Below are positions 4,544 through 64,000 of a stretch of DNA of 64,000 nt, piece after piece. The stretch covers positions 3,168,001 to 3,232,000 of the forward strand of contig OZ244070.1 of NCBI GenBank assembly GCA_965215605.1. Reading direction: 5' to 3'. The position numbers and the translations under genes were made by a program. Origin of the DNA: an uncultured Candidatus Binatia bacterium. Its GTDB lineage: Bacteria > Desulfobacterota > Binatia > UBA9968 > JAJDTQ01. Positions within the stretch are counted from its first letter, which is position 1, and each line of letters starts with the position of its first letter. A model generated the notes under the pieces. That model saw only the letters and a list, made by a program, of their open reading frames with translations, was not told where the DNA came from and made no database searches.

Positions 4544-5272
4544 CTAGGCCGACAGCTTGGCCTTGTAGAAATCCACCGTGCGTTGCCAAGCGTCGGCGGC
4601 GGCTTCGGGGTGCCAGCGGTCGGCGTTGGTGTTGTTGTTGAAGGCGTGCCTGGCGCCGTCGCCGTAGATCTTGAGGTCGATGGTCTTGCCGGCCTTGGCC
4701 AGCGCCTCTTCAAGGGGCTCGATGCCGGGCATGATGTTGGGATCGTCCTCGGCATAGTTGCCCATGAGCGGGCAGGTGATGTTGGCCACCCGATCCAGCG
4801 GATCGGGGTTGCGGCCGTAGTACACCACCGCGGCGTCGATCTGGTTGCACTTGGTGGCGAAGTTCAGCGACTGGCCGCCGCCCCAGCAGTAGCCGACGAC
4901 GCCCACCTTGCCGTTGGCGAAGCCCTGGCTCTTGAGGTAGTCCACCGCGCGGGTCAGGTCTTCCACGCAACCGGCCGGGTCCAGGCTGCGGATGGCGGCG
5001 ATGGCGTCCTGCGGGGTCTGGTACTGCGCGGTGCCGCCGGTGCGCTGGAGCATGTCCGGAGCCAGTGCCGCAAAGCCTTCCTTGGCGAAGTGCCTGGCCA
5101 CGTCCTTGATGTGGTCCACCAGCCCGACGTTCTCGTGAATGACGACGACCGAGCCGAGGTCGGCGCCGTCCCTGGGCCGCGACAGATAGCCCGTGCAACT
5201 CCCGTATTCCACCATTCCCGATTCGAGCTCGGGATCGTTCTCGTCGACGAGACAGGGTATGGTATCCGCCAT
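4544..5272 (-). CDS. Dienelactone hydrolase family protein
   Basis: VIHENVGL, GYCWGG nucleophile motif, HAFNN. Confidence 0.93.
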   Translation of the reverse strand: MADTIPCLVDENDPELESGMVEYGSCTGYLSRPRDGADLGSVVVIHENVGLVDHIKDVARHFAKEGFAALAPDMLQRTGGTAQYQTPQDAIAAIRSLDPAGCVEDLTRAVDYLKSQGFANGKVGVVGYCWGGGQSLNFATKCNQIDAAVVYYGRNPDPLDRVANITCPLMGNYAEDDPNIMPGIEPLEEALAKAGKTIDLKIYGDGARHAFNNNTNADRWHPEAAADAWQRTVDFYKAKLSA

Positions 5273-5342
5273 ATTCGCAAACCTCCTCGTTGCCGGTTCC
5301 GGTTTCTCCAATCACCCGGATCGAACGCAGGCGCTCCACTCG

Positions 5343-7550
5343 CTACGCCGCAGCCAAACGCGACCCGCGCCTCCTCTTCTGGAACAGGTACAGCGCCGCA
5401 AACACGACCCACGCGCCGAACTGCACGGTCATGCGCAGGGAATCGGTGTCGCCCACCAGAAGGGCGGGGCGGAAGGCGGCGATGCAGATGGCTGCCAGCA
5501 GGACCCGTTCGGGCCAGCCGCACCGGTCGGCGAAGAATCCCTGCATGGCGGCGGCAAAGGCCATCATGGCCACCAGGCCGTTCAGTATCACCCAGACAAC
5601 CGAGAACATGTCGTCCAGCCAGATGATGGACTTGTCGGGCGCCACGCCGGCGATCAGCAGCAGCTCCAGGTTGAAGATGAAAACGAACGGCAGGATCGCG
5701 GTGCGCAGGTCGTAGGTAAACCCCTGGATGCCGGTCTTGATGGGGTCCGACCCGGCGATGGCTGCTGCCGCGAACGCTGCCAGGCCCACCGGCGGCGTGT
5801 CATCGGCCAGAATCCCGAAGTAGAAGACGAACAGATGGGCCGCCAGCACCGGGATCACGAGTCCCGCCTCCGCGCCCAGGGTGACGATCACCGGTGCGGT
5901 CAGGGTGGCCATGACGATGTAGTTGGCGGTTGTGGGGAGGCCCATGCCCAGGACCAGGCTGGTGAGAGCGGTCAGCAGCAGCATGAGCACGACGTTGCCC
6001 AGCGAGATGATCTCGATGGCCTCGATGAACCGGCTGCTGAGGCCGGTCAGGGTGACCGTGCCCACGATGATGCCGGCGGCCGCGGTGGCCACGGCGATGG
6101 GCGCCATGTTCCGGGCGCCGGACACGCAGCCTTGCAGGATCTCGCGGATGCTCAGGGCCAGACCCTGCATGACCGCCTGTCCGAGCGAGCCAGCCGCGGG
6201 GTTGTCCGGCGAGGGTCGAAGCACCGCCGCGCAGCTCTGCCCGACCCGCTGGATGACCATGATGGCCAGGGTCAGCAGAATGGCGTTGAAAGCCGCGGAG
6301 ATCGCGGAGAAACGCAGAATGACCAGCGTGTAGAGCAGCGCCAGAATCGGGATCAGGAAGTGAACGCCCTTGAGGAACGTGGGCCAGAATCGCGGCAACT
6401 CTTCATCCGGGATCGCGATCAGATCCAGTTTGAGCGCTTCCAGGTGCACGACGTAGAGCAGGGCGATATAGGAAAGCACCGCTGGAATGGCCGCCGCGGT
6501 GACGACGTCGATGTACGGAAGCCCGAGAAACTCGGCCATGATGAAGGCGGCCGCGCCCATGACGGGCGGCAGGAGTTGCCCGTTGGTGCTGGCGCCCACC
6601 TCCACCGCCCCGGCCTTGTAGGCCGGGAGCCCCACCCGCTTCATGAGCGGGATGGTGAAGGTCCCGGTGGTGGCGACGTTGGCGATGGACGAGCCGGACA
6701 CCATGCCGGTCAGTCCGGACGCCAGCACCGCGGCCTTGGCGGGGCCGCCGCGGAAACGGCCAAGCATCGCGTAGGCCACCTGGACGAAGTACTCCGCCGC
6801 CCCGGCCCGGTCCAGCAACGCGCCGAACAGGACGAAGAGAAAGACGAAGTCCGTCGACACCCCCAGCGGCACGCCCCAGATGCCGCTGTCGGACAGGTAC
6901 ATGTGGTCCACGATGAAATCGAGGGGGATGCCGGGGTGTGCCAGGAACCTCGGCAAGTACGGGCCAACGAAGCAGTACAGCAGAAAGACCGTGGCCAGCG
7001 CCGGAAGCGCCAGTCCCAGGGAGCGGCGAGCCGACTCCAGCAGCAGAAGGATGAACGCCGCGCCGATGTATACGTCCCGGGCCAGGGGGAGGCCGGAACG
7101 CTGTATGATCCCCACGTAGTCCCAAGCCAGGTAGCCCGTGCCGCAGGCGGCCAGGGCGGCAATGACGAAGTCGTACCAGGGTATCTTGACCGGATCCCGC
7201 TTGCGCCGTCCCGGGAACAACTGCTGCATCAGCGCGTGGAAGCGCTCCAGCGTCGCGACCCGCCGTATGGCCGGGAAAGAGAGATAGACCAGCAATACGG
7301 CGAAGGTCAGATGGATGCTGCGGGCGATGATGGAGTTGATGGGATGGTAGGCGATGTTGAGTTGGAAGAGGGACCAGCAAAGCGCCAGGAGCCAGAGGAA
7401 ACCACCGATCGGGCCGCCGGGGGACCGGGTCTTGCCCTCGCCCTCGCCGAGTTCGGCCAACGCTTCGAGGTCAACGGATTCGCCGGCCGGCCCGTTGCTG
7501 TCGGAGGATGAATTCACGGGCGCGTCTGCCTGATGGGCTGTGCCATGCAA
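5343..7550 (-). CDS. TRAP transporter fused 4TM/12TM permease (TAXI type)
   Basis: GGPAKAAVLAS, SGSSIANV, GQLLPPVMGAAAF, GMGLPTTANY, DTPPVGLAA motifs; polytopic. Confidence 0.95.
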   Translation of the reverse strand: MHGTAHQADAPVNSSSDSNGPAGESVDLEALAELGEGEGKTRSPGGPIGGFLWLLALCWSLFQLNIAYHPINSIIARSIHLTFAVLLVYLSFPAIRRVATLERFHALMQQLFPGRRKRDPVKIPWYDFVIAALAACGTGYLAWDYVGIIQRSGLPLARDVYIGAAFILLLLESARRSLGLALPALATVFLLYCFVGPYLPRFLAHPGIPLDFIVDHMYLSDSGIWGVPLGVSTDFVFLFVLFGALLDRAGAAEYFVQVAYAMLGRFRGGPAKAAVLASGLTGMVSGSSIANVATTGTFTIPLMKRVGLPAYKAGAVEVGASTNGQLLPPVMGAAAFIMAEFLGLPYIDVVTAAAIPAVLSYIALLYVVHLEALKLDLIAIPDEELPRFWPTFLKGVHFLIPILALLYTLVILRFSAISAAFNAILLTLAIMVIQRVGQSCAAVLRPSPDNPAAGSLGQAVMQGLALSIREILQGCVSGARNMAPIAVATAAAGIIVGTVTLTGLSSRFIEAIEIISLGNVVLMLLLTALTSLVLGMGLPTTANYIVMATLTAPVIVTLGAEAGLVIPVLAAHLFVFYFGILADDTPPVGLAAFAAAAIAGSDPIKTGIQGFTYDLRTAILPFVFIFNLELLLIAGVAPDKSIIWLDDMFSVVWVILNGLVAMMAFAAAMQGFFADRCGWPERVLLAAICIAAFRPALLVGDTDSLRMTVQFGAWVVFAALYLFQKRRRGSRLAAA

Positions 7551-7635
7551 ATCTCCATCGGATGAATCGGCTCGGGACAGGACTTCGTTCCGCCGGCCCC
7601 GAGCCGGTTCTCATGTCGACAAAGGGTATGACGGG

Positions 7636-8601
7636 TTACATCAAGCCCTTTTCCTTGTAGTACTTCGTAGCCCCCGGATGCATCGGCGCCGCGAGGCCGT
7701 CCAGCATTCCCTTCGGGGTCAGAATCTTGAACGCGGGGTGCAGGTTGCGGAGCGCGTCGAGGTTCTCGAACACGGTCTTCACCACCGTATAGACCTGGTC
7801 CGCGGGCTCTTTCTCGCCGGTCACGAAGGTCGCCTTCACGGCGTAGGTCGGAACGGCCTTGTCCACACCCTTGTAGATTCCGCCGGGAATCGCCGTCATG
7901 GCGTAGTAGGGCTTGTCCGTTGCCAGCTTCTGGATTCCCTTCGAGTTCAAGGGGATCATGGTGATGGCGGTGCTGTTGGCTATTTCCAGGCCGCCGCCCC
8001 AGGGGTTGCCCACGGTGTAGAAGAACGCATCGATCTTCTTGTCGACCAGCGCGCGGTTGGCTTCGTTCTGCTGCAGACCTTCGGCCTTGATGTCCTTGTC
8101 CTTGTCGATGCCGGCGAGGCGCAGCACCTCCTCCGCGTTACCCCGTTGTCCGGACCCGGGGTTGCCGATGTTGACGCGCTTGCCCTTGAGGCCGGCCACG
8201 GAGGTGATCCCCGTGTCCTTGCGCGTGACCAGCATCACGGTCTCGGGATGGGCGCTGAAGACCGTACGCAGTCCTTTCTGGGGCTTGCCGTCCCAGTCCC
8301 TCTTGCCGTTGGCGGCCTGCCAGACACGGTCGGACTGGGCCACGCCGTAGTTCAAGAGGCCTCTCTTGATGGCGTTGATGTTGAAGACCGATCCGAGGGC
8401 CGGCCGGCCGATGCAGTTGTAGCCCTTGCTGCCCAGCTTGTCGTTGATAATCTTGCAGACGTTGAGAGCCACCTGATAGTAGACGCCGGTGGTGGAGCCC
8501 CCGCCCACCACGAGGAAATTCTGTGCAGCCGCATCCTTGGCCGCCATGGTCATGGTGCCGCACAGCGCGAGACCAATCATAAACGTGAGTAAGCGTTTCA
8601 T
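7636..8601 (-). CDS. TAXI family TRAP transporter solute-binding subunit
   Basis: Signal peptide MKRLLTF..., GGGSTTGVYY, GSVFNIN, QSD, GNPGSGQR, PMHPGATKYYKE. Confidence 0.95.
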   Translation of the reverse strand: MKRLLTFMIGLALCGTMTMAAKDAAAQNFLVVGGGSTTGVYYQVALNVCKIINDKLGSKGYNCIGRPALGSVFNINAIKRGLLNYGVAQSDRVWQAANGKRDWDGKPQKGLRTVFSAHPETVMLVTRKDTGITSVAGLKGKRVNIGNPGSGQRGNAEEVLRLAGIDKDKDIKAEGLQQNEANRALVDKKIDAFFYTVGNPWGGGLEIANSTAITMIPLNSKGIQKLATDKPYYAMTAIPGGIYKGVDKAVPTYAVKATFVTGEKEPADQVYTVVKTVFENLDALRNLHPAFKILTPKGMLDGLAAPMHPGATKYYKEKGLM

Positions 8602-8929
8602 AGGGTCCTCCTTCAGGTTACGTTTCCGGTCGTGAGACCATTCTTGAGCCAACAGCCGTTGTCTATCCCACAAGGGGTCCGGCAATGCAACAGGACCTTT
8701 CGGAACGGGCGTCTCGCGAATCGCCGGCGCTTCGGGACCGACCACGCGGATGGCCGGCAACCAGGGGTCATGCAAAGGAAACGGACGGCGCGGCGCGCGG
8801 CCGTCGTGCCCGTGCGTGGATGCGCTGGTGGATATTTCGCAAATCCTGGGATACGTTTTTGCGGAAGCCCCAGGGACCCGGGCACCCGGCCCGGAGCTGT
8901 TTCACCGTACCGACGTCCAGGAAATTCAG

Positions 8930-51900: not shown

Positions 51901-53115
51901 ATGGCGAAACTCACCACGGCGACGATTTCGAAGCGCACGGTGGAAGCGCTGGTGGTGAAGAGGGACACGGTCTACTGGGACTCGGAGCTTTCGGGCTTCG
52001 GGGTTCGCGCCTATCCGTCGGGGAGCAAGTACTACGTGGTGCAGACCCGGGCCAACGGCAAGGCGGCAAAGCGGGTGACGGTGGGCCGGCACGGAATCGT
52101 GACGGCGGAGGAGGCGCGCAGGCGGGCGGCGCTGATCATCGCGCGCATCAAGGCGGGAGAGGAGCCGCTGGCGGAACCCGCGGCGGCCCTGGCCGAGGGT
52201 CCCACGGTGGGGGAGCTTGCGCGCCGGTGGCTCGAAGAGCACGTGGCGGTGCGGTGCAAGCCCAGGACGGTGGAGATGTACACGCTGATCGTCCGCAAGC
52301 ACCTGCTGCCCGCGCTCGGCAGGGCACCGGCGCTGGCCGTGGATCACAAGCGGGTGACCGAACTGCACCATTCGATGCGCGGGACGCCGTCGATGGCCAA
52401 CCGGACGGTGGAGGCGCTGTCGCGCATCTGGAACTCTGCGGAGGACCGGGGGGAGTTGCCGGAGGCGAGCAACCCGTGCCGGGTCGTGGTGAAGAACCGC
52501 GAGCGCGGGCGCGAGCGGTTCCTGAGCGAGGAGGAGTTCCGCCGGCTGGGGCGGGCGCTGGCGGAGGCGGAGACCGGGAATGGCATGTCGGTGCACGCGG
52601 TGGCGGCGATCCGGCTGTTGCTGCTCACGGGGTTGAGGCGGAACGAGGTTCTGGTGCTCCGCTGGCGGGACGTGGACCTCGATGCGCGCGAGATCAAGCT
52701 CGAAGACTCCAAGACCGGAGCGCGCGTGGCGCCGCTCTCGCCGGAGGCGGCCCGGGTGCTCGCCGTCATCCCGCGCGTGGAGGGGAACCCGCACGTGATC
52801 CCCGGGAAGAAGGCGGGCACGCACCTGCGCAACCTCAACGACCCCTGGGACCGGATCCGCAAGCGCGCGATGCTGGAGGACGTGCGGCTCCACGACTGCC
52901 GCCACTCGTTCGCGTCCAGGGCGCTGGCGCTCGGCGAAGGGCTGACCATGATCGGGAAGCTCCTGGGTCACACCAAGGTGGAGACCACCGCGCGGTACGC
53001 GCATCTGGCGCGGGAGTCGGTGCGCGACTCCGCCATCCGCGTATCCGACAGCATCGCCGCCGACATCCTGAAGGGATACGGCGGGGACCAAGCTCGGGCC
53101 AGGACGGCGACCTGA
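51901..53115 (+). CDS. Tyrosine recombinase/integrase with arm-binding domain, copy 2
   Basis: WDSELSGFGVR; TGLRRNE, DSKTG, HDCRH, LGH, TARY; AAGGAGG RBS. Confidence 0.96.
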   Translation: MAKLTTATISKRTVEALVVKRDTVYWDSELSGFGVRAYPSGSKYYVVQTRANGKAAKRVTVGRHGIVTAEEARRRAALIIARIKAGEEPLAEPAAALAEGPTVGELARRWLEEHVAVRCKPRTVEMYTLIVRKHLLPALGRAPALAVDHKRVTELHHSMRGTPSMANRTVEALSRIWNSAEDRGELPEASNPCRVVVKNRERGRERFLSEEEFRRLGRALAEAETGNGMSVHAVAAIRLLLLTGLRRNEVLVLRWRDVDLDAREIKLEDSKTGARVAPLSPEAARVLAVIPRVEGNPHVIPGKKAGTHLRNLNDPWDRIRKRAMLEDVRLHDCRHSFASRALALGEGLTMIGKLLGHTKVETTARYAHLARESVRDSAIRVSDSIAADILKGYGGDQARARTAT

Positions 53116-53402: not shown

Positions 53403-53684
53403 ATGAGCACACGACGACGGTTCAGCGGAGACTTCAAGGCGAAGGTAGCGCTGGAGGCGCTGCGAGGGGACAAGACGATCCAGGAGATTGCGGCGCGGCA
53501 CAAGGTCCACCCGAACCAGGTGAGCACGTGGAAGCAGCGTGCGGTGGAGGGGATGAAGGAGGTGTTCTCGAAGGGAGCCGAGGGGGCACGAGGAGACCAC
53601 GAGGGGGAGGTCCGGGACCTGCACGCGAAGATCGGGGAGCTGACGGTGGAGCGGGATTTTTTGGCCAAAGGGCTCAAGTGGTGA
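53403..53684 (+). CDS. IS3 transposase OrfA (HTH)
   Basis: RRRFSGDFKAKVALEA...VHPNQVSTWK...IGELTVERDFL. Confidence 0.93.
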   Translation: MSTRRRFSGDFKAKVALEALRGDKTIQEIAARHKVHPNQVSTWKQRAVEGMKEVFSKGAEGARGDHEGEVRDLHAKIGELTVERDFLAKGLKW

Positions 53685-54610
53685 GCCGGGAGAAGCGCCG
53701 GGGGATGATCGCGCCCGGCCATCCCAAGCTCAGCTTGAGCCGTCAATGCCATTTGCTTCGAGTGAGTCGATCCTCCGTGTACCACCGGCCCAAGGGCGAG
53801 AGCGCGGAGAATCTGGCGTTGATGCGCCGGATCGACAAGCTGTTTCTGGAGTACCCCTTCTACGGCAGCCGCTAGATGGTCCGCCATCTGTGGCGGGAGC
53901 GAGTCCGAGTGGGTCGTCACCGGGTGCGGCGTCTGATGCGCCTGATGGGGCTCCAGGCCATCTATCAGGCGCCGCGCACCACCCGACCGCACCCCGAGCA
54001 CCGGGTCTATCCCTATCTGCTCAAGGGGGTCGCCATCGAACGGCCCCATCACGCGTGGACCTCCGACATCACCTATGTCCCTGTCCAGAGTGGCTTCCTG
54101 TACCTGGTGGCGGTGATGGACTGGGCCACCCGCCGGGTGCTCTCCTGGAGGCTGTCGAACACCCTCGATGCCCGCTTCTGTGTCGAGGCCCTCTCAGAGG
54201 CTCTGGAACGCTACGGCCCTCCCGAGATCTTCAACACCGACCAGGGCAGCCAGTTCACCAGCCTGGAGTTCACCTCCGTGCTCAAGGACGCCGGCGTCGC
54301 CATCTCCATGGACGGCAGGGGCCGATGCATGGACAACATCTTCATCGAGCGCCTGTGGCGCTCCCTCAAGTACGAGGCCGTCTACCTGCACGAGCTGACC
54401 GACGGCTTCGCCGCCCAAAGGGTCATCGCCCGATGGATGGAGTTCTACAACACCCAAAGGCCTCACACCGCCCTCAATGGCTCGACCCCGGCCGAGGCCT
54501 ACGACCATGGAATGCTGATGGAGATGCAGGCTGAGCCCCTCCGCTCTCCTGCCCCTCCACCCGCTCAACCGGAACGGGAAGACGTGTTAAACAGGACCCT
54601 GGCGGCATGA
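53681..54610 (+). pseudogene. IS3 transposase OrfB (DDE) with internal amber stop
   Basis: FYGSR*MV with TAG at 53873-53875; WTSDITY, FNTDQGSQF, DNIFIERLWRSLKYE downstream. Confidence 0.9.
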
Positions 54611-54843
54611 TCCACTACCCGGAATACACCTTATTTTCGCCGCCCACCTGTCCAACGAAGTAGGACCACCTCAATTGAGAAAATCCTGTTTGAGTTCGGC
54701 ATATGTGGTGTATAGTACGTAACGTACTTTCCATCACGCATGACGCTGATAGTGCCCAGTCGCAAGAAACAAAATCCAAGAAGCGCGGGGGCGGCACCGC
54801 GACGTTCATCGGGTCGATGTCACGCCCCGTCGGAGTGTCTTCC

Positions 54844-56556
54844 ATGTGGCAGGTATCGCTGCCCGGCCTATGTCCAGTGACTGATGCTGTTGCCATCCTT
54901 GGCGCTGACGGCATTGAGCACCGCGGCGCGGTCTATACAAAGCGGGAGGTGGTTGAGTTCATTCTTGATCTTTCCGGCTATACCTCCGACCGTCCGCTTT
55001 ACAGTTACCGCCTTCTGGAGCCGTCCTTCGGCGACGGTGATTTCTTGCAGATAGCAATCGAGCGTCTGCTCGAAAGCTGGCACCTAAGCAAGTCATGCGG
55101 CAATCCTGTTGCTGCGCTCGCGCAGTGCATTCGCGGCGTTGAGTTACACCCATCCTCTTTCTGGAGCACGCGCGGCAAGGTCATCAAATGGCTCAAGGAC
55201 GCAGGCATGACGGTCGAGGGGGCAGAACGTCTTGCGGATGTATGGCTTATGCAGGGCGATTTCTTGCTCACCGAACTGGCCAACTCCTTTGATTTTGTTG
55301 TCGGTAATCCGCCATATGTGCGGCAGGAACTGATTCCCGATTCCTTGATCGCGGAATACCGCACGCGCTACCGCACAGTGTTCGATCGCGCCGACATCTA
55401 TATTCCCTTTATCGAACGCTCGCTGAACCTGCTGAGTGAGGACGGCACCCTCGGCTTTATCTGCGCAGACCGCTGGATGAAGAACCGCTATGGCGGTCCG
55501 TTGCGGCAGATGGTGGCTGAAGGATATCACCTGAAGGCCTATATCGATATGACCGACACGCCGGCCTTCCATGCCGATGTGATCGCCTACCCGGCGATCA
55601 CCATCATTACAAAGGGAAACCCTTGCAGGACGCGGATCGCCCATCGCCCCGCCATTGACAAAATAGTGCTGGATTCCCTTGCCCGGGAAATATTGGCCGA
55701 CAGTCCGCCCGCACCTGACGGTTCGGTCAAGGAAATAGCAGATGTTGCCGTCGGTCAGCAGCCCTGGATTCTGGAATCCTCAGATCAGCTCAAGCTCATT
55801 CGCCGGTTGGAACACGATTTTCCGGGCATCGAAGAAGCCGGGTGCAAGGTCGGGATCGGCGTGGCGACCGGTGCGGACAAAGCCTTTATAGGCCCTTTCA
55901 ACGAACTCGACGTGGAGGAGGATCGCAAGCTGCCGCTCGCCATGACCCGCGATATCGACAGCGGTGAAGTCAAATGGCGTGGCCTTGGGGTTGTTAATCC
56001 GTTCACCGATGGCGGCGGTCTTGTCGATCTGAACGACTATCCCCGCCTGAAGAGTTATTTTGAACAGCGACGCGGCCAGATTGCAAAAAGGCACGTCGCA
56101 CAGAAGGTGCCAGCGAACTGGTACCGGACTATCGACCGAATTTATCCTGCGCTTGCCACCGAACCGAAGCTGCTCATCCCGGACATCAAGGGCGAAGCCC
56201 ATATCGTCTACGAAGACGGGCACCTGTATCCGCACCACAATCTCTACTTCATCCTTTCCGACGAGTGGGACTTGAGGGCGCTACGCGCCGTGCTGCGCTC
56301 CGGTATCGCCAAGCTCTTCGTTTCGATCTACGCGACCCGCATGCGAGGCGGTTATCTACGCTTTCAAGCGCAGTATCTCCGGCGCATTCGACTGCCGCGC
56401 TGGAAGGACATTTCCGCCGTCCTCAAAAACGACCTGATCAAGGCCGCTACGTGCAACAATACTGGCGCCTGTAACAGGGCTGTTTCACAGATCTACGGTT
56501 TTACACAAGAAGAACGTGCCGCCATCGGCGGGAACGGTGAACGGGAGGCCTTTTGA
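54844..56556 (+). CDS. Type II N6-adenine DNA methyltransferase, PaeR7I/XhoI-like (Eco57I/TaqI-like fold)
   Basis: [15 protein letters not shown] motif I, VGNPPYVR motif IV, TaqI-C-like tail; GGAG RBS. Confidence 0.93.
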
Positions 56557-57290
56557 CAATAGATCTTGCCGATTACGAACAGAGGGCCCGGCAGGCCATC
56601 CGAGCGTTCTGGGGCAACCGCGAGAAGGCACGCCAGAAGCAGGCCGATTCCGGCAGGGCCGATCAAGGCGAACGCGCCGGCGTCACGGCCGGCAAGAACA
56701 TGGATGGGTTTATTGCCCTGGTTATCGACATCGTTCGGGCCAACGGACTGGATCATGCTGACATTCATCAGCGGCGCCGTGTACTGACATTGCCCGGCTA
56801 TTTTCGGCCCACGAAGTTGTGGGACCTTCTGGTTATCAATGAAGGCCGCCTGGTCGCTGCACTCGAATTTAAGAGCCAGGTGGGCCCATCGTTCGGTAAC
56901 AATTTCAACAACCGTTCCGAAGAAGCCATCGGCACTGCGCTTGATCTTTGGACGGCCTACAGGGAAGGGGCATTTGGCGAACAGGCACGTCCTTTCGTCG
57001 GCTGGTTGATGTTGCTTGAAGACGCGCCAGCATCGCGGACTCCCGTCGGGGATGCGTCTCCCCATTTCCCAGTATTCAAGGAGTTTCAGGGTGCCTCGTA
57101 TGCCGAGCGCTACAATATTCTCTGCCGTAAGCTAGTGCGGGAACGGCTTTATACGACGGCATCGGTCCTGACATCGCCGCGGTCGGCTTCGACAGACGGC
57201 GACTATTTCGAAATGAGCGATATGACTGGGCTGCGCGCATTTGTTACCGAACTTGCCGGACATGTGGCCGCAGAGGCGGCAAGATCATGA
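56553..57290 (+). CDS. PaeR7I/XhoI-family type II restriction endonuclease (predicted CTCGAG)
   Basis: [52 protein letters not shown]; coupled to MTase stop. Confidence 0.92.
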
Positions 57291-57400: not shown

Positions 57401-58402
57401 CTAGCTCATCTCCCACATGCGACAACTGACGTGGTTTCGCTTTGAAATCATCGAACCGATGACTTGGGAGTGACGTGGTCGGCAAGACGCCTCTTGTGAT
57501 GGTGCCTCCGCGTCAAAGGACGACTCCACTTGCCGTCGAAGTTCCTCAACCTCGTTTCGCGACAGGTTCCGGACATCCCAAGCGTAAGTCCGTGGGTCCC
57601 TGATCATCTTCCAAAGCCGTCCCAAGCCGCACGGCTCACGGTTCCCCGCGATCTCGACGTCTCCGAGCATTCTGACCACCGCCGCCTCAAAATCCCTCAG
57701 TGTGGCATAGCCACTCCCCAACTCCCTCACGGGCGAATTGGCAAATATCTCATTCAGCGGATGATGTTCAAAAATTTTCGACAAGAGGCTTCGGAGGTCG
57801 TCCACCGTGTCACAAGCACTTCCCCATGCCCGCCCCTCGCGGTACGCGACCTTCAGCGCCCGCAGGGACTGAGCCAGTCTCTGTTCTGCCCGGCAAAGAC
57901 GGTATTCATGAGACAACCGGCGCACTATCTCACGATAGTCAAAGATGATATCCCCTCGATCCGCAAGATAGCAAATTCCGAAATTGCGCAGCGCCACGTA
58001 CGCCAAATCAGCCACGAGTGGCACATCCCGGATCAACGTTTCCGCCGGAAACCGCTCAATCGGTAAAGCCAACTCCGCGCTCTTCAACGCTTCAACTTCG
58101 TAAGTTTCCTTCTTGTCCGCGCCCCGCAGCGTCCCTGCCAGCCACCCATTGTTATCCGCAATTATGATACCTTCAAGTCTCAAATGCTGAACGAACAGAC
58201 TACCTGCTGAACTCATCTTCGACAGTCGCGTCGGTGAATAAGACGCAACTGACCAGCCCGCTGCGCGCCAGCGGCGAACCAGTTGTCGGCGCCTCTGGTC
58301 ATCATCCCCTACAACCAGTACATCTCGGTCGCTCATGACGTCGGTTGATGACCTGGCCGCCGACCCAAAGATACAAACACTTTCAATATTGCCCGGTTTC
58401 AT
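57401..58402 (-). CDS. Pol-beta-superfamily nucleotidyltransferase, Hailong HalB-like
   Basis: FGSAARSSTDVMSDRDVLVV (GS-x-DxD), SVASY, GSLFVQHLRLEG; ATGA overlap with the channel gene. Confidence 0.85.
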   Translation of the reverse strand: MKPGNIESVCIFGSAARSSTDVMSDRDVLVVGDDDQRRRQLVRRWRAAGWSVASYSPTRLSKMSSAGSLFVQHLRLEGIIIADNNGWLAGTLRGADKKETYEVEALKSAELALPIERFPAETLIRDVPLVADLAYVALRNFGICYLADRGDIIFDYREIVRRLSHEYRLCRAEQRLAQSLRALKVAYREGRAWGSACDTVDDLRSLLSKIFEHHPLNEIFANSPVRELGSGYATLRDFEAAVVRMLGDVEIAGNREPCGLGRLWKMIRDPRTYAWDVRNLSRNEVEELRRQVESSFDAEAPSQEASCRPRHSQVIGSMISKRNHVSCRMWEMS

Positions 58403-59301
58403 GGCGAGATCTTCCGGAAGAGCATAGACGCCAACAGTGCCAATAGAAAAAATCCCAGTAGGCTTTGCACCGAAGCCGCCAAGTGCCCCGTGTGTGTCGT
58501 TGGAACGATGTCTCCGTAACCAGCCGTTGTAAAGGAGATTATTGTATAGTAGAGCGCCTCTACCCACGACGTGATTGGCTCGCCGTCCACTTCTAAGCCA
58601 AGGTCGCGACGCAATCGATAATTGAATATGGTAAATGACGTAATCGTAACCCCAACAGTTCCCAGGAAGTATCTAAGTCGCAATCCGGAGCCGAAGAGCT
58701 TCTCCCAGATCCAGCGACGCATATAACCGAAACATTTGAGAACGAATCTTCCGGACAACCGCCTTGTTCCCTCCCGTTTCGTCCAATTTCTGATCTCGTA
58801 TCCGTCTTGAAGTCGCTTCCACCGCAAGAAAAAAAACTGCGCATCACGCTCGAACTCGATTTGTTCCGTTCCACGGCTGTTACTTAAAAGCATTTGATAC
58901 AGATGTACTCCAATATTCTGATGTTTACGGCTGATTAGACATCTACGAAAACTCATCGGATCAATGTAGGTACGACAAATCGACAACTTGTGTGTGTTAG
59001 TAAGAATGAAATGACAGTTATGGAACTCGCAATCTTCGATAGAGGCGCCGATAAAAAGACAACGGTCAAACGTGCAATTCCGAAAACTAAATCCTGATAT
59101 ACATGTCTTCGAAAAACTCACTCGCTCGAATGTCGTATCGCGGATGCGACACTCTCTCGCGTCACCCGTTCGCTGCATGACGTCCGGCATATATGATGCA
59201 TGAGTCACATGACGTGAGGTTTTTAGAAGGCTATGGAAGTCTTCCTGCGACGCTATCAAGGTACTGCCGTCTAGGTGCCAGAATTCGTCGGTCATCGTCA
59301 T
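58399..59301 (-). CDS. Pentapeptide-repeat protein fused to 2-TM K+-channel pore (Ion_trans_2), Hailong HalA-like effector
   Basis: Pentapeptide run IRDTTFERVSFSKTCISGFSFRNCTFDRCLFIGASIEDCEFHNCHF; TM-ALYYTIISFTTAGYGDIVP-TM. Confidence 0.87.
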   Translation of the reverse strand: MTMTDEFWHLDGSTLIASQEDFHSLLKTSRHVTHASYMPDVMQRTGDARECRIRDTTFERVSFSKTCISGFSFRNCTFDRCLFIGASIEDCEFHNCHFILTNTHKLSICRTYIDPMSFRRCLISRKHQNIGVHLYQMLLSNSRGTEQIEFERDAQFFFLRWKRLQDGYEIRNWTKREGTRRLSGRFVLKCFGYMRRWIWEKLFGSGLRLRYFLGTVGVTITSFTIFNYRLRRDLGLEVDGEPITSWVEALYYTIISFTTAGYGDIVPTTHTGHLAASVQSLLGFFLLALLASMLFRKISP

Positions 59302-59484
59302 CAAAAATGTGGCGTCCCGAATAAAACGGACTGCACTGCTTATGTACTGAAAAAACCACTGGTTCCACCGCCTGTGATGGATGGCGCTTCAATTGTCGGG
59401 TGCTCGTGGGCGATCGCGGCGGACGCAGAATACATCGTGGACGGTCCTTTGAAAACGGTCCCCAGTCGTCCTGGGTTCCTCCTG

Positions 59485-60210
59485 TCTGCCTTCGCCGTTT
59501 TGGGCATCACTACCGCATCCACAGGAATGTTGACCGTCCTGCCAGTCCCTTCCTGCTCGACTGGCACGTTGAGACGGAACGAATACGTCCCCGGCTCCAA
59601 CTCGTCATATTTCGTGCCCTCGCCTGCGGATAAGTTTTCGTACTCCAGAACTGTCAACCATTCGCTGATCGCCGTGAGCTGACGCTATTCCTGTCGGTTA
59701 CGGATGAGCGGATTGGCGACGGCCCCGCATAGGCGATCGGCCACGATGGTCGCGGCCCGGTACAGCTCCGGTTCGGACGGATCGTCTCCGCGCTCCAACC
59801 AGACGAAGACATCCGGGTCGGCCATCCGCTCGATGATCTGCCCAATCTTCTTGAGGTCTCTGTCCAGTTCCTGCTGGGACATTCGCGGCGGGAGCCTGTT
59901 CTCCTTATCCATCGCCTTGACCAGGTTCCCGGAGACGCCAGCAAGACCGATCAGCCGGTCCATGGCCAGAGGCGGACAAGTGGACATCCGCAGTGACGGC
60001 AACACCGAGGGCTTCGCCTTCAGGAGCTCCACCCCCCACATCTGTCAGGTTCTTCGTCGCTATAAGGGTCGCCTCGACATCCATTGTGGTCTGCACCCGC
60101 GTCGTCCGGTAGGCCTCCGGCGCAAATCGCATGAACCAGTCGTTGTACATGTCCACCGAATCTGCGATGTCCTGTTTCCACCGGTCGGGTTTGTCCCTGT
60201 TGACTGCCAT
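59485..60210 (-). pseudogene. XamI-family type II restriction endonuclease pseudogene
   Basis: MAVNRDKPDRWKQDIADSVDMYNDWFMRFAP...RMSTCPPLA.DRL...ADRLCGAVANPLIRN; frameshift in G6 run near 60035, TAG at 59685-59687, C-terminal part lost near 59485. Confidence 0.82.
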
Positions 60211-60635
60211 CACTTGTTTTTCTTTTCCTGATCTTCCCGCTTTGCCAGCCAGCAAGGCTTACACATCTCCTGAAAAAGCCGGTCAGGCACACATAACGGT
60301 CGCCGCTTCCTTCTCGAAAGCGACCACCATCTGCTTCGGCAGCCTGATCCCGGCAACCTGCGTCGGGCCTCGTGCCACCATCCGCCTACTCTCTCCTTGG
60401 CTTACTGCTAGGTTCATTGTTGACGACGACTCGACACCCGTCAACAGCGCTCACTTGAGTTTACCGAAATTAGCATGCTGCTGCACTCCTCGGGAACTCT
60501 CGCGTGACGAACTTGAAGTGATCGCCGACGAGCCTGTCCTCGCATCCATTGCCACCCGTGAATGACTCGTCGGAAGGACCGGACGGCCGCGACCTAGACG
60601 GCGACCCGGTCTCCAGCCACACATCTACTTGGGAT

Positions 60636-61292: not shown

Positions 61293-61535
61293 ATGCCCGA
61301 CACCAATATCAGCGGGGAGCACCACCGAGCGTTCGAGGCCCTGACCAACGACCGGTTCGACAATTTCTGTCTCGTCTCGTGCTTCGTCGACGGCGAACCA
61401 ACCGCGGCCATCGCCGCCGTCAACCTCAGTCCTCCCGCTCAAGACGGCGGTGAACCAGAAGTTCTCATCCGTCCGCTCTTCATCTGGCCGACCGCGGCGA
61501 TGACGCTGACCGACCACGACGGGAGGGAAGCATGA
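61293..61535 (+). CDS. Small hypothetical protein (loosely DUF6117-like, mobile-element backbone)
   Basis: AAGGAG RBS; ATGA-coupled to the next gene. Confidence 0.7.
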   Translation: MPDTNISGEHHRAFEALTNDRFDNFCLVSCFVDGEPTAAIAAVNLSPPAQDGGEPEVLIRPLFIWPTAAMTLTDHDGREA

Positions 61536-62389
61536 GCGAGAGCCCGCCATGCGGCCACCGACCTGCCGCCGACCTCCATATCCCGCCCGAATGCCGCGAC
61601 ATGATCCGCCGCGGCGCGCTCGTGGCCATCAATTCGTCGGGGGGCAAGGACAGCCAGGCCATGACGATCCTGCTCGCCCGGATCGTGCCTCACGATCAGT
61701 TGGTGGTAGTTCACGCCCCGCTCCCCGTGGTCGAGTGGCCGGGCACGATCGAGCACATCGAGAACACGATCCCGGCCGACGTTCCGCTGATATTCGCGCC
61801 AGTGGCGTCGGGGAAGACCTTGCTCGACCAGGTCGAGGAACGGGGGAAATGGCCGGGAATCCACCAGCGGTGGTGTACTGCGGGCCACAAGCGGGGCCCG
61901 ATCGAGCGCGAACTCCGCCGCTACCTGAAGGCTCATCCCCGCTTTGACGGCCTCCTGGTCAGCGCCATGGGACTGCGACGAGACGAGAGCGCCGACCGCG
62001 CCAAACGCTTTCCCTGGAAGTACAGCGACCGCAACTCCCGCGCCGGCCGGGAATGGTTCGACTGGCTGCCGATCTTCGAGCTGACCGAGGCCGACGCGTT
62101 CCGGATCATCCACGACGCCGGACAGTCGCCGCACTGGGTCTACGCGCAGGGGATGTCGCGATGTTCGTGCAGTTTCTGCATCTTCTCGTCGCGCTTCGAT
62201 TTGCGCCGCGCCGCCGAGCTTCGCCCTGCGCTCTATCGCCGGTACGCCGCGATCGAGAAGCGCATCGGCCACACGCTGTCGCCGTCGGGCGTTCCTCTTC
62301 CCGAGCTGACCGGCATTCCGGCCGAACCCGCCGCCGGAACGCCCGGCCTGTCCGACGGGCTCCGCACCGAAGAGAGCGCCAGGCCATGA
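61532..62389 (+). CDS. Phosphoadenosine-phosphosulfate-reductase-like (PP-loop) protein
   Basis: SSGGKDS PP-loop, RWCT..HKRGPI, GLRRDES..RA, YAQGMSRCSCSFC. Confidence 0.9.
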   Translation: MSESPPCGHRPAADLHIPPECRDMIRRGALVAINSSGGKDSQAMTILLARIVPHDQLVVVHAPLPVVEWPGTIEHIENTIPADVPLIFAPVASGKTLLDQVEERGKWPGIHQRWCTAGHKRGPIERELRRYLKAHPRFDGLLVSAMGLRRDESADRAKRFPWKYSDRNSRAGREWFDWLPIFELTEADAFRIIHDAGQSPHWVYAQGMSRCSCSFCIFSSRFDLRRAAELRPALYRRYAAIEKRIGHTLSPSGVPLPELTGIPAEPAAGTPGLSDGLRTEESARP

Positions 62390-62532
62390 ATCACCCGGTC
62401 CGCGGCCCGCCGGCAACCGGCGCCGCATCACCGCACGAACACCGCCTGGAGGCGGAGCCTGGCCCGGGCCGGGCGGCGGGACAAGGCTCGCGAGAGCCGC
62501 CGCCACAACCATCAACTCCCACGGAGGACCAC

Positions 62533-64000
62533 ATGAACCACATCGCTCCCCTCCACGAGCCGGCGATCCGCCCGATCGCGCTCGACCGGCTGTCCGTCGC
62601 GCCGGAGAACGTGCGCAAGACGCCGCCCGCTACGGCCGCCGAGGCCGAGTTGAAGGCTTCCATCGCAGCCCATGGGCTGCTGGAGAACCTGATCGTCCGA
62701 AGCGAAGGCCCCGGCGGCGGCTATGCCGTGGTCGCGGGCGGCCGCCGCCTCGCGGCGCTCAAGAAGCTCGCCGCGGACGGCGTGCTCGATGCCGCCCATC
62801 CGGTGCCGTGCCTGGTCGTCGACGACAATGCCTCGTCCAGTGAACTGTCGCTCGCCGAGAACGTCATTCGCATCGCCATGCATCCCGCGGACCAGGTGAC
62901 CGCGTTCACGAAGCTCGCCGAATCCGGCGTCACGGTGGCGGCCATCGCCGCGCGGTTCGGCATCTCCGAGCCCTTGGTCGAACAGCGCCTGCGGCTCGGC
63001 AACGCGGCGCCCGAACTGGTCGACGCATACCGGGCCGACGAGATCGACCTGGAGACGCTCAAGGCCTTCGCGGTCACGACCGATCACGGCCGCCAGATGG
63101 CTGTCTGGGAGCAGTTGGCGAACCAGGGCTACCGTCCGACCTCCTGGGAGGTGAAACGCCTGCTGACCGAGGAGCGGACTCCGGCGAACTCCGCCATGGC
63201 CCGTTTCGTCGGCATCAACGCCTACGAGGCCGCGGGCGGACCGGTGTTGCGGGACCTCTTCGCCGACGAGGAAGAGAGCGGAATCTGGCTGGAGGACCCG
63301 GTGCTCCTGCAGAAACTCGCCATGGACAAGCTGGGCGAGGCCGTGAAGGACCTCCAGACCCGCTGGCGCTGGGCAACGGCCGTGCCGGAGGTCGACTGGA
63401 CCTCGATGGCGCGTTACGGGCGCATCCAACCGGAGCCCGCGGCGCCGACCGACGAGGAGACGGCCGAGCTCGATCGTCTGCGCACCCGCGAGGATGAGCT
63501 CTGCAATCTCGACGAAGACGAGTGGACCGAAACGCTCGGAGAGGAGGCCTGCGCCATCGAGACCCGGACAGGCGAGATCAGCGCGGCGATCGAGGCCCGC
63601 GAGACCTACCGGGCGGAGGACTACGCGGTCGCCGGAGCCATCGCCACCATCGCATGGAACGGCGAGCTTCAGGTCATCGGGGGCCTGGTCCGTCCCGAGG
63701 ACATGCCGAAGCCGGCCGATTCCGGCGCGGGCCCTGACGCTGACGCCGGTGATGGCGACAACGCCACTGGGTCCGTCCGGTTTCAGGGAACCGCAATCTC
63801 TGCGCCCATGGCCTCGCCTCCCGATCCGCAGGCCGAGGCGCGCAAGGAAGCCGGGGTCGGGATCGGCCTTGCCGACGATCTCCGCTCGATCCGCACGGCA
63901 CTGGTCAAGGCTCAACTCGGGAACGACTTCGCGGCCGCCTTCGACCTCATGCTGTTCCAGCTCGGCCGCGCCGTGTTCACCCGCGGCTACCGGGACCATG
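62533..64000 (+). CDS. Long ParB/RepB/Spo0J-family protein (partial, runs off window; absent from ORF track)
   Basis: Manual translation MNHIAPLHEPAIRPIALDRL...ENVRKT...LKASIAAHGLLENLIV...VAGGRRLAAL...SLAENVIR..MHPADQ; GGAGG RBS. Confidence 0.92.
   Translation, partial: MNHIAPLHEPAIRPIALDRLSVAPENVRKTPPATAAEAELKASIAAHGLLENLIVRSEGPGGGYAVVAGGRRLAALKKLAADGVLDAAHPVPCLVVDDNASSSELSLAENVIRIAMHPADQVTAFTKLAESGVTVAAIAARFGISEPLVEQRLRLGNAAPELVDAYRADEIDLETLKAFAVTTDHGRQMAVWEQLANQGYRPTSWEVKRLLTEERTPANSAMARFVGINAYEAAGGPVLRDLFADEEESGIWLEDPVLLQKLAMDKLGEAVKDLQTRWRWATAVPEVDWTSMARYGRIQPEPAAPTDEETAELDRLRTREDELCNLDEDEWTETLGEEACAIETRTGEISAAIEARETYRAEDYAVAGAIATIAWNGELQVIGGLVRPEDMPKPADSGAGPDADAGDGDNATGSVRFQGTAISAPMASPPDPQAEARKEAGVGIGLADDLRSIRTALVKAQLGNDFAAAFDLMLFQLGRAVFTRGYRDH

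Follow-up and report, generated by a model that had tools for sequence, protein, structure and literature searches.

A pentapeptide-repeat potassium channel coupled to a HalB-like nucleotidyltransferase in a Candidatus Binatia genome: a probable Hailong-type guard module outside the curated families

Introduction

Why should a potassium channel with pentapeptide repeats be encoded in strict company with a nucleotidyltransferase (NTase)? The question is raised by a stretch of 64,000 nucleotides (nt) from an uncultured Candidatus Binatia bacterium (assembly GCA_965215605.1, contig OZ244070.1, positions 3,168,001 to 3,232,000; the whole stretch is hereafter called the window), near the end of which two overlapping genes on the minus strand encode such a channel and an NTase of the DNA polymerase beta (pol-beta) type. 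An earlier reading of the bare sequence (the original prediction) had taken them for a module resembling Hailong. Hailong is an anti-phage system of two proteins, the channel effector HalA and the NTase HalB, reportedly described by Tan and colleagues in 2025, with HalA said to carry a crown domain. The resemblance was borne out in our analysis, where HalB proved to be both the closest curated family and the only significant solved relative of the NTase, and where the order of the two genes is that of canonical Hailong loci. We consider it probable, by analogy, that the pair is a Hailong-type anti-phage guard in which two translationally coupled genes act together, the product of the NTase keeping a toxic channel shut. 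The evidence comprises the homology of the NTase to HalB, a shared architecture and gene order, intact motifs, strict pairing of the two genes, and a rare, patchy and mobile distribution.

The two genes

The two genes and their junction were delimited in open reading frames (ORFs) and their translations as follows (lengths in amino acids, aa).

58399..59304, minus strand: channel gene (HalA-like effector), TTG start, 301 aa
57401..58402, minus strand: NTase gene (HalB-like, pol-beta), 333 aa
58399..58402, minus strand: ATGA overlap of channel stop and NTase start

The overlap agrees with the original prediction of two ATGA-coupled genes and would be expected to couple their translation. The channel can also be read from an ATG at 59301, which gives 300 aa, the same size as its 300-aa homologues, and the entry for it in the window genome's protein set (P0003) has 259 aa, beginning 42 codons after the start that its homologues support. 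We favour the longer form over P0003 because conservation in the family alignment begins at about residue 5. The pair does not consist of chance ORFs, since a set of 5.8 billion proteins yielded 113 homologues of the channel (nearly all of about 300 aa) and 97 of the NTase (295-356 aa) with conserved motifs, under record names such as "ion channel" and "hypothetical protein".

The NTase is a relative of HalB

The NTase carries three stretches on which the argument below depends.

58322..58369, minus strand: catalytic motif F12-G13-S14 ... D25-x-D27, invariant in 34/34 aligned sequences
57694..57717, minus strand: Y232-x3-R236-x2-E239 motif (GYATLRDFEA), specific to this NTase family and without a HalB counterpart
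57578..57595, minus strand: PRTYAW motif (P270-W275), with P270, Y273 and W275 invariant in 34/34

A pol-beta NTase with GS-x-DxD and PRTY motifs had been read from this gene, and the assignment is upheld: Pfam NTP_transf_2 scores 22 bits (cut-off 21), and the motifs FGSAARSSTDVMSDRDV (G13 S14 ... D25 x D27), GSLFVQHLRLEG and PRTYAW (270-275) are present. The protein has a conserved core up to residue ~283-285 and a variable tail after it. When a profile of the NTase was searched, 1556 clusters (at 50% identity) had E <= 1e-3, of which 225 reached E <= 1e-30, and most of the best 150 are 270-340 aa long; among 218 NTases of this long family the catalytic motif is 95-97% conserved.

The closest curated family of the NTase is HalB (NF051895), with 62.3 bits and E 4.6e-17 over positions 3-151 of the 211 in the model. 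Its only significant relative among solved structures is likewise HalB (9dbh/9dbi/9dbj); a search with the single sequence gave E 1e-6 and one with a profile 1.1e-10, the next NTase following at 0.027 in the latter. Canonical Hailong loci for comparison (L115, L117 and L118) were taken from an enterobacterial family in which 2 of 401 genomes passed the HalA cut-off and 5 gave matches at E <= 1e-20; the HalA of these loci is 85% identical to a protein that NCBI names HalA. No canonical HalA passed the cut-off in 400 genomes of the window's own phylum. Alignment of the NTase with canonical HalB by hhalign gave a probability of 97.2 and E 3.5e-11 over residues 1-183, and pairwise identity is 27% over 101 aa. 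When the alignment was split as a control, the catalytic core gave P 6e-8 and residues 59-183 alone gave P 3e-6 (probability 88), while for residues 184-300 hhalign found nothing in HalB (P 0.37). Because the residues after the core match HalB by themselves, the kinship goes beyond what the shared core alone would give, and at the level of sequence the relation between NTase and HalB is real and reaches past the generic pol-beta core.

The region beyond the HalB match is where the family is most distinctive. Canonical HalB is 228-237 aa long versus 333 aa for the NTase of the window, which has ~100 additional conserved residues, and the most conserved residues of the family sit in this C-terminal region without a HalB match: Y232, R236 and E239 are 100% conserved in the 218 sequences and Y187 97%. 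The HalB C-terminal tyrosine reportedly primes DNA synthesis, and a tyrosine lies within the last three residues of all four canonical HalB sequences. In the NTase of the window the last tyrosine is Y273, 60 residues before the C-terminus and 97% conserved in the 218 sequences, which makes it a candidate priming residue; judging from their conservation, the internal tyrosines (Y232, 100%; Y273, 97%) could stand in for the terminal one. Furthermore, the fold neighbours of a family member (P0164) include fusions of an NTase with a HEPN domain, aligned over residues 6-218, which agrees with the description of a Hailong NTase as "NTase-like plus HEPN-like" in the relevant passages of PMC13586616.

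The channel and its likeness to HalA

The channel begins with an N-terminal region, continues through pentapeptide repeats and a conserved helical linker, and ends in a K+-channel pore with two transmembrane (TM) helices; the following parts of it are used below.

58927..59157, minus strand: pentapeptide-repeat region, channel residues ~50-126
58408..58692, minus strand: pore module (TM1, pore helix, selectivity filter, TM2), channel residues ~205-299
58510..58530, minus strand: selectivity filter TTAGYGD, channel residues 259-265

This layout agrees with the original prediction of pentapeptide repeats joined to a two-helix pore with TTAGYGD. Pfam Ion_trans_2 matches residues 225-299 with 49.1 bits against a gathering cut-off of 22.5, the TxGYGD filter lies between two TM helices, and the solved structures that best match the protein are K+ channels. 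Pfam scores for the repeats are borderline (PF00805 20.2 vs 20.2; PF13599 34.5 vs a cut-off of 38; PF13576 25.1 vs 27), and precomputed PF13599 and PF13576 matches are found in most channel homologues. The filter has the form [TSA][TSA]xG[YF]G[DE] in 107 of the 113 homologues and TPLGYGD in one, the remaining five being truncated before the pore. Some distant family members have a degenerate filter, namely three Dehalococcoidia (L106, L107 and L111) and one of the Bacteroidia (L109), at about 7000-8900 in each locus; examples of the lost GYGD are TTHVGINIF and AGIFGGFADH, and the long NTase is retained in those loci.

Among the pentapeptide-type NCBIfam models HalA (NF051894) is the best match of the channel, ahead of Qnr, with 34.2 bits over model positions 70-148 only, the pentapeptide region; BLASTP against canonical HalA likewise gave 36% identity over 45 aa, in the pentapeptide region only. 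With the full-length proteins, hhalign returned a probability of 97 in one continuous register through the pentapeptide repeats, TM1, GY and TM2, and the pentapeptide part alone gave 97.8 and E 8.4e-13. We considered the full-length score as proof of a homologous HalA pore and rejected it, the sub-region controls having traced it to the pentapeptide repeat. In the weak pore alignment TTxGYGD lies opposite FLAGYTK, always in the same register. Canonical HalA consists of pentapeptide repeats and then a C-terminal TM part in which Pfam sees no channel domain (three proteins scanned), and it reads DITFLAGYTK (AGYTK) in 14 of 17 sequences.

The effector is thus HalA-like in architecture, and homology of its pore to that of HalA appears likely from sequence comparison, because a pentapeptide-Ion_trans_2 protein of another locus (L019) matches the TM part of the HalA model (positions 227-336, E 1.7e-4) and because PMC13586616, in its description of the system, gives a Hailong effector an IRK potassium-channel domain. 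The pentapeptide repeat had been proposed as the mark that sets the module apart; that proposal fell, since canonical HalA carries one too and no other part of the channel has a significant match to HalA. Among the distinguishing features the C-terminal region of the NTase therefore stays, the pentapeptide repeat is removed and the intact K+ filter (AGYTK in 14 of 17 canonical HalA) is added. Indeed the pentapeptide domain seems, from the sequences compared, to be the constant partner of HalB-like NTases, with the pore varying, because pore types differ among the systems: GYGD here, degenerate in distant members, AGYTK in HalA, and no GY in genome G295. The locus in that genome (L121, G295:C68, 1255-2769) encodes a 284-aa pentapeptide-repeat membrane protein without GY and, after a 6-nt gap, a 217-aa pol-beta NTase.

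Pairing and distribution

Pairing was assessed in 23 loci of other genomes, found by searches from the NTase side and from the channel side. A channel lies directly upstream on the same strand in 20 of the 21 genome loci found via the NTase, the 21st being cut by a contig end, and an NTase lies directly downstream in all 10 loci found via the channel N-terminal domain alone, two of them new. The expectation that the two genes co-occur was thus sustained, and channel and NTase are strictly coupled. In 16 of the 23 loci the two genes overlap by NTGA, and 43 of 113 channel clusters share the longest contig size with an NTase cluster, which is a lower bound on pairing. A first genome scan based on the channel had been swamped by generic K+ channels (80 loci kept, 7 examined, 2 true members). 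Pentapeptide-repeat K+ channels without a neighbouring NTase include gammaproteobacterial proteins of ~310-330 aa in L019 (7494-8417), L030 (7731-8726) and L046 (7809-8756); those of L019 and L046 end in ...FVVVFVKKMTR, and that of L030 has FVKRMTR.

The taxonomic spread of the pair is wide yet very sparse, so that its distribution is rare and patchy. By record titles, homologous loci occur in Rhodobacterales, Hyphomicrobiales, several gammaproteobacterial orders, Chloroflexota, Acidobacteriota and Bacteroidota. The pair was found in none of 60 relatives of the window genome, 27 of them of the same genus; 400 sampled genomes of the phylum held one other match, a different, shorter variant; and a tblastn search of the NTase against a plasmid collection gave no match. 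Additionally, four other genomes carry a frameshift that splits either the channel (L094, L098 and L109) or the NTase (L015/L103), which suggests that the pair is frequently inactivated.

No third gene is conserved among the 142 ORFs that neighbour the pair in 19 loci. The most frequent families in that set are 5 phage integrases, 3 rve transposases, 4 DNA methylases (2 + 2) and 1 EcoRII-type endonuclease, and the remaining neighbours are ordinary-looking. Another mobile setting is seen in a Thalassobius locus (L130), where a serine recombinase (resolvase) lies on one side of the pair and a tyrosine integrase on the other (1892-2533 and 4731-6269).

Genomic setting in the window

The genes around the pair were identified in a Pfam scan of the neighbourhood.

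51901-53115: tyrosine integrase
53403-53684 and 53876-54610: IS3-type pair (HTH_Tnp_1 ORF and rve ORF, in different frames)
54703-56556, plus strand: Eco57I-type N6-adenine methylase (Pfam Eco57I 89 bits, TaqI_C)
56553-57290, plus strand: XhoI-family endonuclease (Pfam XhoI 334 bits)
59340..60041, minus strand: broken XamI-family endonuclease gene in two ORFs (Pfam RE_XamI)

The Eco57I-type methylase and the XhoI endonuclease form an intact neighbouring restriction-modification pair, which, like the broken XamI gene, is context outside the two-gene module. The XamI ORF at 59685-60041 covers RE_XamI positions 9-122 and that at 59340-59657 covers 138-189, so that positions 190-256 of 256, the 3' part, are missing. 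The remnant stops 36 nt upstream of the channel start, and it looks as if the low-GC (guanine plus cytosine) cassette of channel and NTase had replaced the 3' end of XamI. No XamI-type methylase was recognised beside the remnant, where the ORF at 59905-60255 has no Pfam match. With the XhoI restriction-modification pair on one side, the broken XamI on the other and an integrase nearby, the proposed setting between an intact and a dead restriction system on an integrative element is corroborated.

The lower GC content that had been claimed relative to the host was also found, the channel having 0.475 and the NTase 0.559, compared with 0.657 over the whole window and 0.666 in its bases 1-51900; the entire 54-60 kb stretch is low in GC. 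The IS3-type element separates the integrase from the XhoI restriction-modification pair. On the far side lie a gene with a PAPS-reductase domain and then a long ParB-like gene (62.5-64 kb), together 61532-63999, a combination that hints at an integrative or conjugative element whose backbone extends past the window. We regard the pair, as part of the guard-module reading and with the confidence given to that reading as a whole, as probable low-GC cargo of an integrative element. No transfer RNA gene was found between 45 and 64 kb of the window, and scans for promoters and terminators did no better than shuffled sequence (3 promoter-like sites vs 1.7 expected, and 0 terminators). A look through the listed sequencing runs brought up no expression data.

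Proposed mechanism and alternatives

If the pair is a Hailong-type guard, the NTase would constitutively make a nucleic-acid signal, the Hailong counterpart of which is tyrosine-primed oligo-deoxyadenylate (oligo-dA), and this signal would bind the cytoplasmic pentapeptide-repeat domain and hold the tetrameric pore closed. A phage enzyme, for example a DNA exonuclease, would destroy the signal; the pore would then open, and the ion flux would halt growth before the phage cycle is completed. All of these elements, from the product and the gating to the toxicity, the trigger and the protection from phage, we infer from Hailong.

Several findings weigh against this reading. Both proteins fall far below the equivalog cut-offs of the canonical families, the NTase with 62.3 bits vs the 190 of NF051895 and the channel with 34.2 vs the 250 of the HalA model, on which canonical L115 scores 446. 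The last ~150 residues of the NTase have no HalB counterpart, a tyrosine is found among the last four residues in 16 of the 218 long-family NTases, and that of the window (P0002) has none after Y273. Significant similarity of the channel to HalA is confined to the pentapeptide repeat, a common repeat, and the HalA model also matches Bacillus subtilis, other control genomes and unrelated pentapeptide proteins; the C-terminal half of the channel aligns with HalA weakly, yet in register (P 0.006-0.03, hhalign probability 2-6%). PADLOC, in its 2023 library, which predates Hailong, gave no match for the channel. In addition, the association of the neighbourhoods with defence genes is weak and is given without a background control, and a K+-selective pore would not depolarise the cell as is reported for HalA.

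These points also bear on several earlier expectations. The notion of an NTase longer than HalB, and so of a possible distinct variant, is substantiated by a family of ~270-340 aa as compared with 228-237 aa and by the two scores below the cut-offs. A full-length match of high identity to characterised HalA and HalB did not turn up, the best being the 27% over 101 aa of the NTase and the 36% over 45 aa of the channel. The family searches gave a divided answer, with the HalB model matching at E 4.6e-17, yet below its cut-off, and PADLOC failing on the channel and returning for the NTase only generic weak matches (PDC-S09, PDC-M05A); according to the passages on detection in PMC13586616, both DefenseFinder and PADLOC miss Hailong. 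As for the expected enrichment near defence genes, the 142 ORFs include a few restriction and mobile genes, a weak association.

Where the pair differs from Hailong, the differences themselves may be informative. The passages on Hailong in the reviews PMC13434031 and PMC13276650 report Na+ influx and depolarisation when HalA opens; from the complete K+ filter of the window's channel we would instead expect a K+-selective conductance, with loss of K+. Likewise, the ~100 extra conserved residues and the missing terminal tyrosine imply that the priming or the product of the NTase may differ from those of HalB. A bolder version, which we advance tentatively and would not bet on, is that the family is a large sister group of Hailong in which an NTase with internal-tyrosine (Y232/Y273) priming, or with a different product, gates a K+-selective channel via the pentapeptide domain. 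If this were true, Hailong effectors would descend from fusions of pentapeptide repeats with K+ channels, and the NTase signal would have its conserved receptor in the pentapeptide domain, not in the pore. The curated NCBI models of HalA and HalB overlook the branch completely, and if it acts as a guard, guard immunity based on inhibitory DNA would extend to the Rhodobacterales, Hyphomicrobiales, gammaproteobacterial orders, Chloroflexota, Acidobacteriota and Bacteroidota named above. The branch would furthermore offer two natural experiments, on whether a non-selective leak is required for killing or a K+-selective conductance is enough, and on the priming route of a HalB-type enzyme without a terminal tyrosine.

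The alternative that survives best, though we think it unlikely, is a pair resembling a toxin-antitoxin system, in which the NTase modifies the channel directly by nucleotidylylation or else remains attached to it via its own adduct, and no free oligonucleotide is released. MntA acts on HepT in this way in type VII toxin-antitoxin systems. Such a mode of action would suit the NTase+HEPN fusions among the fold neighbours of P0164 (residues 6-218) and the several invariant tyrosines and arginines in the family-specific C-terminal region; the match to MntA is weak, however, with 14.9 bits vs a cut-off of 60, and HalB is a much nearer relative. Moreover, PMC13434031, in its structural passages, places free 5-nt oligo-dA at the subunit interfaces of HalA, which speaks against a bound adduct.

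Less probable again is a system of the CBASS or Pycsar type, whose NTase would be silent until infection and would then make a signal that opens the channel. Systems of this type generally place a pol-beta NTase beside a membrane effector, and the extra C-terminal region of the NTase could be a sensor. Nevertheless, the nearest characterised relative behaves in the opposite way, its signal being constitutive and inhibitory to the HalA channel according to the sections on Hailong in PMC13434031 and PMC13276650, and neither a CD-NTase nor a cyclase nor any other signalling family scored in the Pfam, PADLOC and NCBIfam scans.

Finally, the pair could consist of an ordinary regulated K+ channel for ion homeostasis and an accessory NTase, neither of them serving in defence, as might be suggested by the complete K+ filter, by the NTase-less relatives in ordinary-looking neighbourhoods (L016, L019, L030, L041 and L046) and by the housekeeping genes that make up most neighbours of the homologous loci. 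This reading is the least probable of all in view of the absence of the pair from all 60 relatives and its wide but very sparse spread, the low GC and mobile island among restriction genes, the strict coupling to a HalB-like NTase and the frameshifted copies in four genomes.

Comparison with known systems

A Hailong-type guard remains the reading that we prefer, and the comparison with Hailong itself is the closest that can be drawn. In L115, L117 and L118 the effector comes first and the NTase second, in a coupled two-gene operon as in the window, and in L117 and L118 the genes also overlap by 4 nt. In both systems the effector has its pentapeptide repeats ahead of a C-terminal TM pore, the NTases are homologous over ~180 residues with GS...DxD intact, and the setting is mobile, canonical L115 adjoining an integrase. 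On the other hand, the pore in the window keeps TTxGYGD and its Ion_trans_2 match whereas canonical HalA has AGYTK, and the NTase of the window is longer, with a C-terminal part unrelated to HalB and without the terminal tyrosine. The distance is also apparent in PHROGs, where canonical HalA and HalB match phrog_24530 and phrog_24076 at 292 and 183 bits while the channel and the NTase of the window reach only 24.7 and 32.5 bits.

A second point of comparison is the Hailong of PMC13586616 (NAR 2026), which, in the passages on it, comes from hotspots of P4-like satellites, is enterobacterial and experimentally tested, and is equated by the authors with the published Hailong. Compared by description only, it resembles the pair of the window in its pentapeptide repeats with an IRK potassium-channel domain and in its partner, NTase-like plus HEPN-like.

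The standalone pentapeptide K+ channels (L016, L019, L030, L041 and L046) share with our channel the pentapeptide repeats and an Ion_trans_2 pore with GYGD. They differ in scoring 57-84 bits on the family profile vs at least 180 for paired channels, in having no adjacent NTase, and in lacking the HQNIGVHLYQ...EFERDA linker of the paired channels. The type VII toxin-antitoxin system MntA/HepT, in turn, is alike in that a pol-beta NTase neutralises a toxic partner, as by analogy it may do in the window, and in that the part of the NTase after the core looks HEPN-like by the fold neighbours of a family member; it differs in that the NTase of the window lies far below the cut-off of the MntA model (NF047752) and in that the partner here is a membrane channel whereas HepT is an RNase.

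Hailong itself, and its description as pentapeptide repeats, K+ channel and NTase, is thus already known from the account of it in PMC13586616, and the branch may already be catalogued in the primary Hailong paper or in the supplements of that paper or of PMC13586616. The pair belongs to a large coherent branch outside the curated models, in which the K+ filter is intact and the NTase is longer and has no terminal tyrosine.

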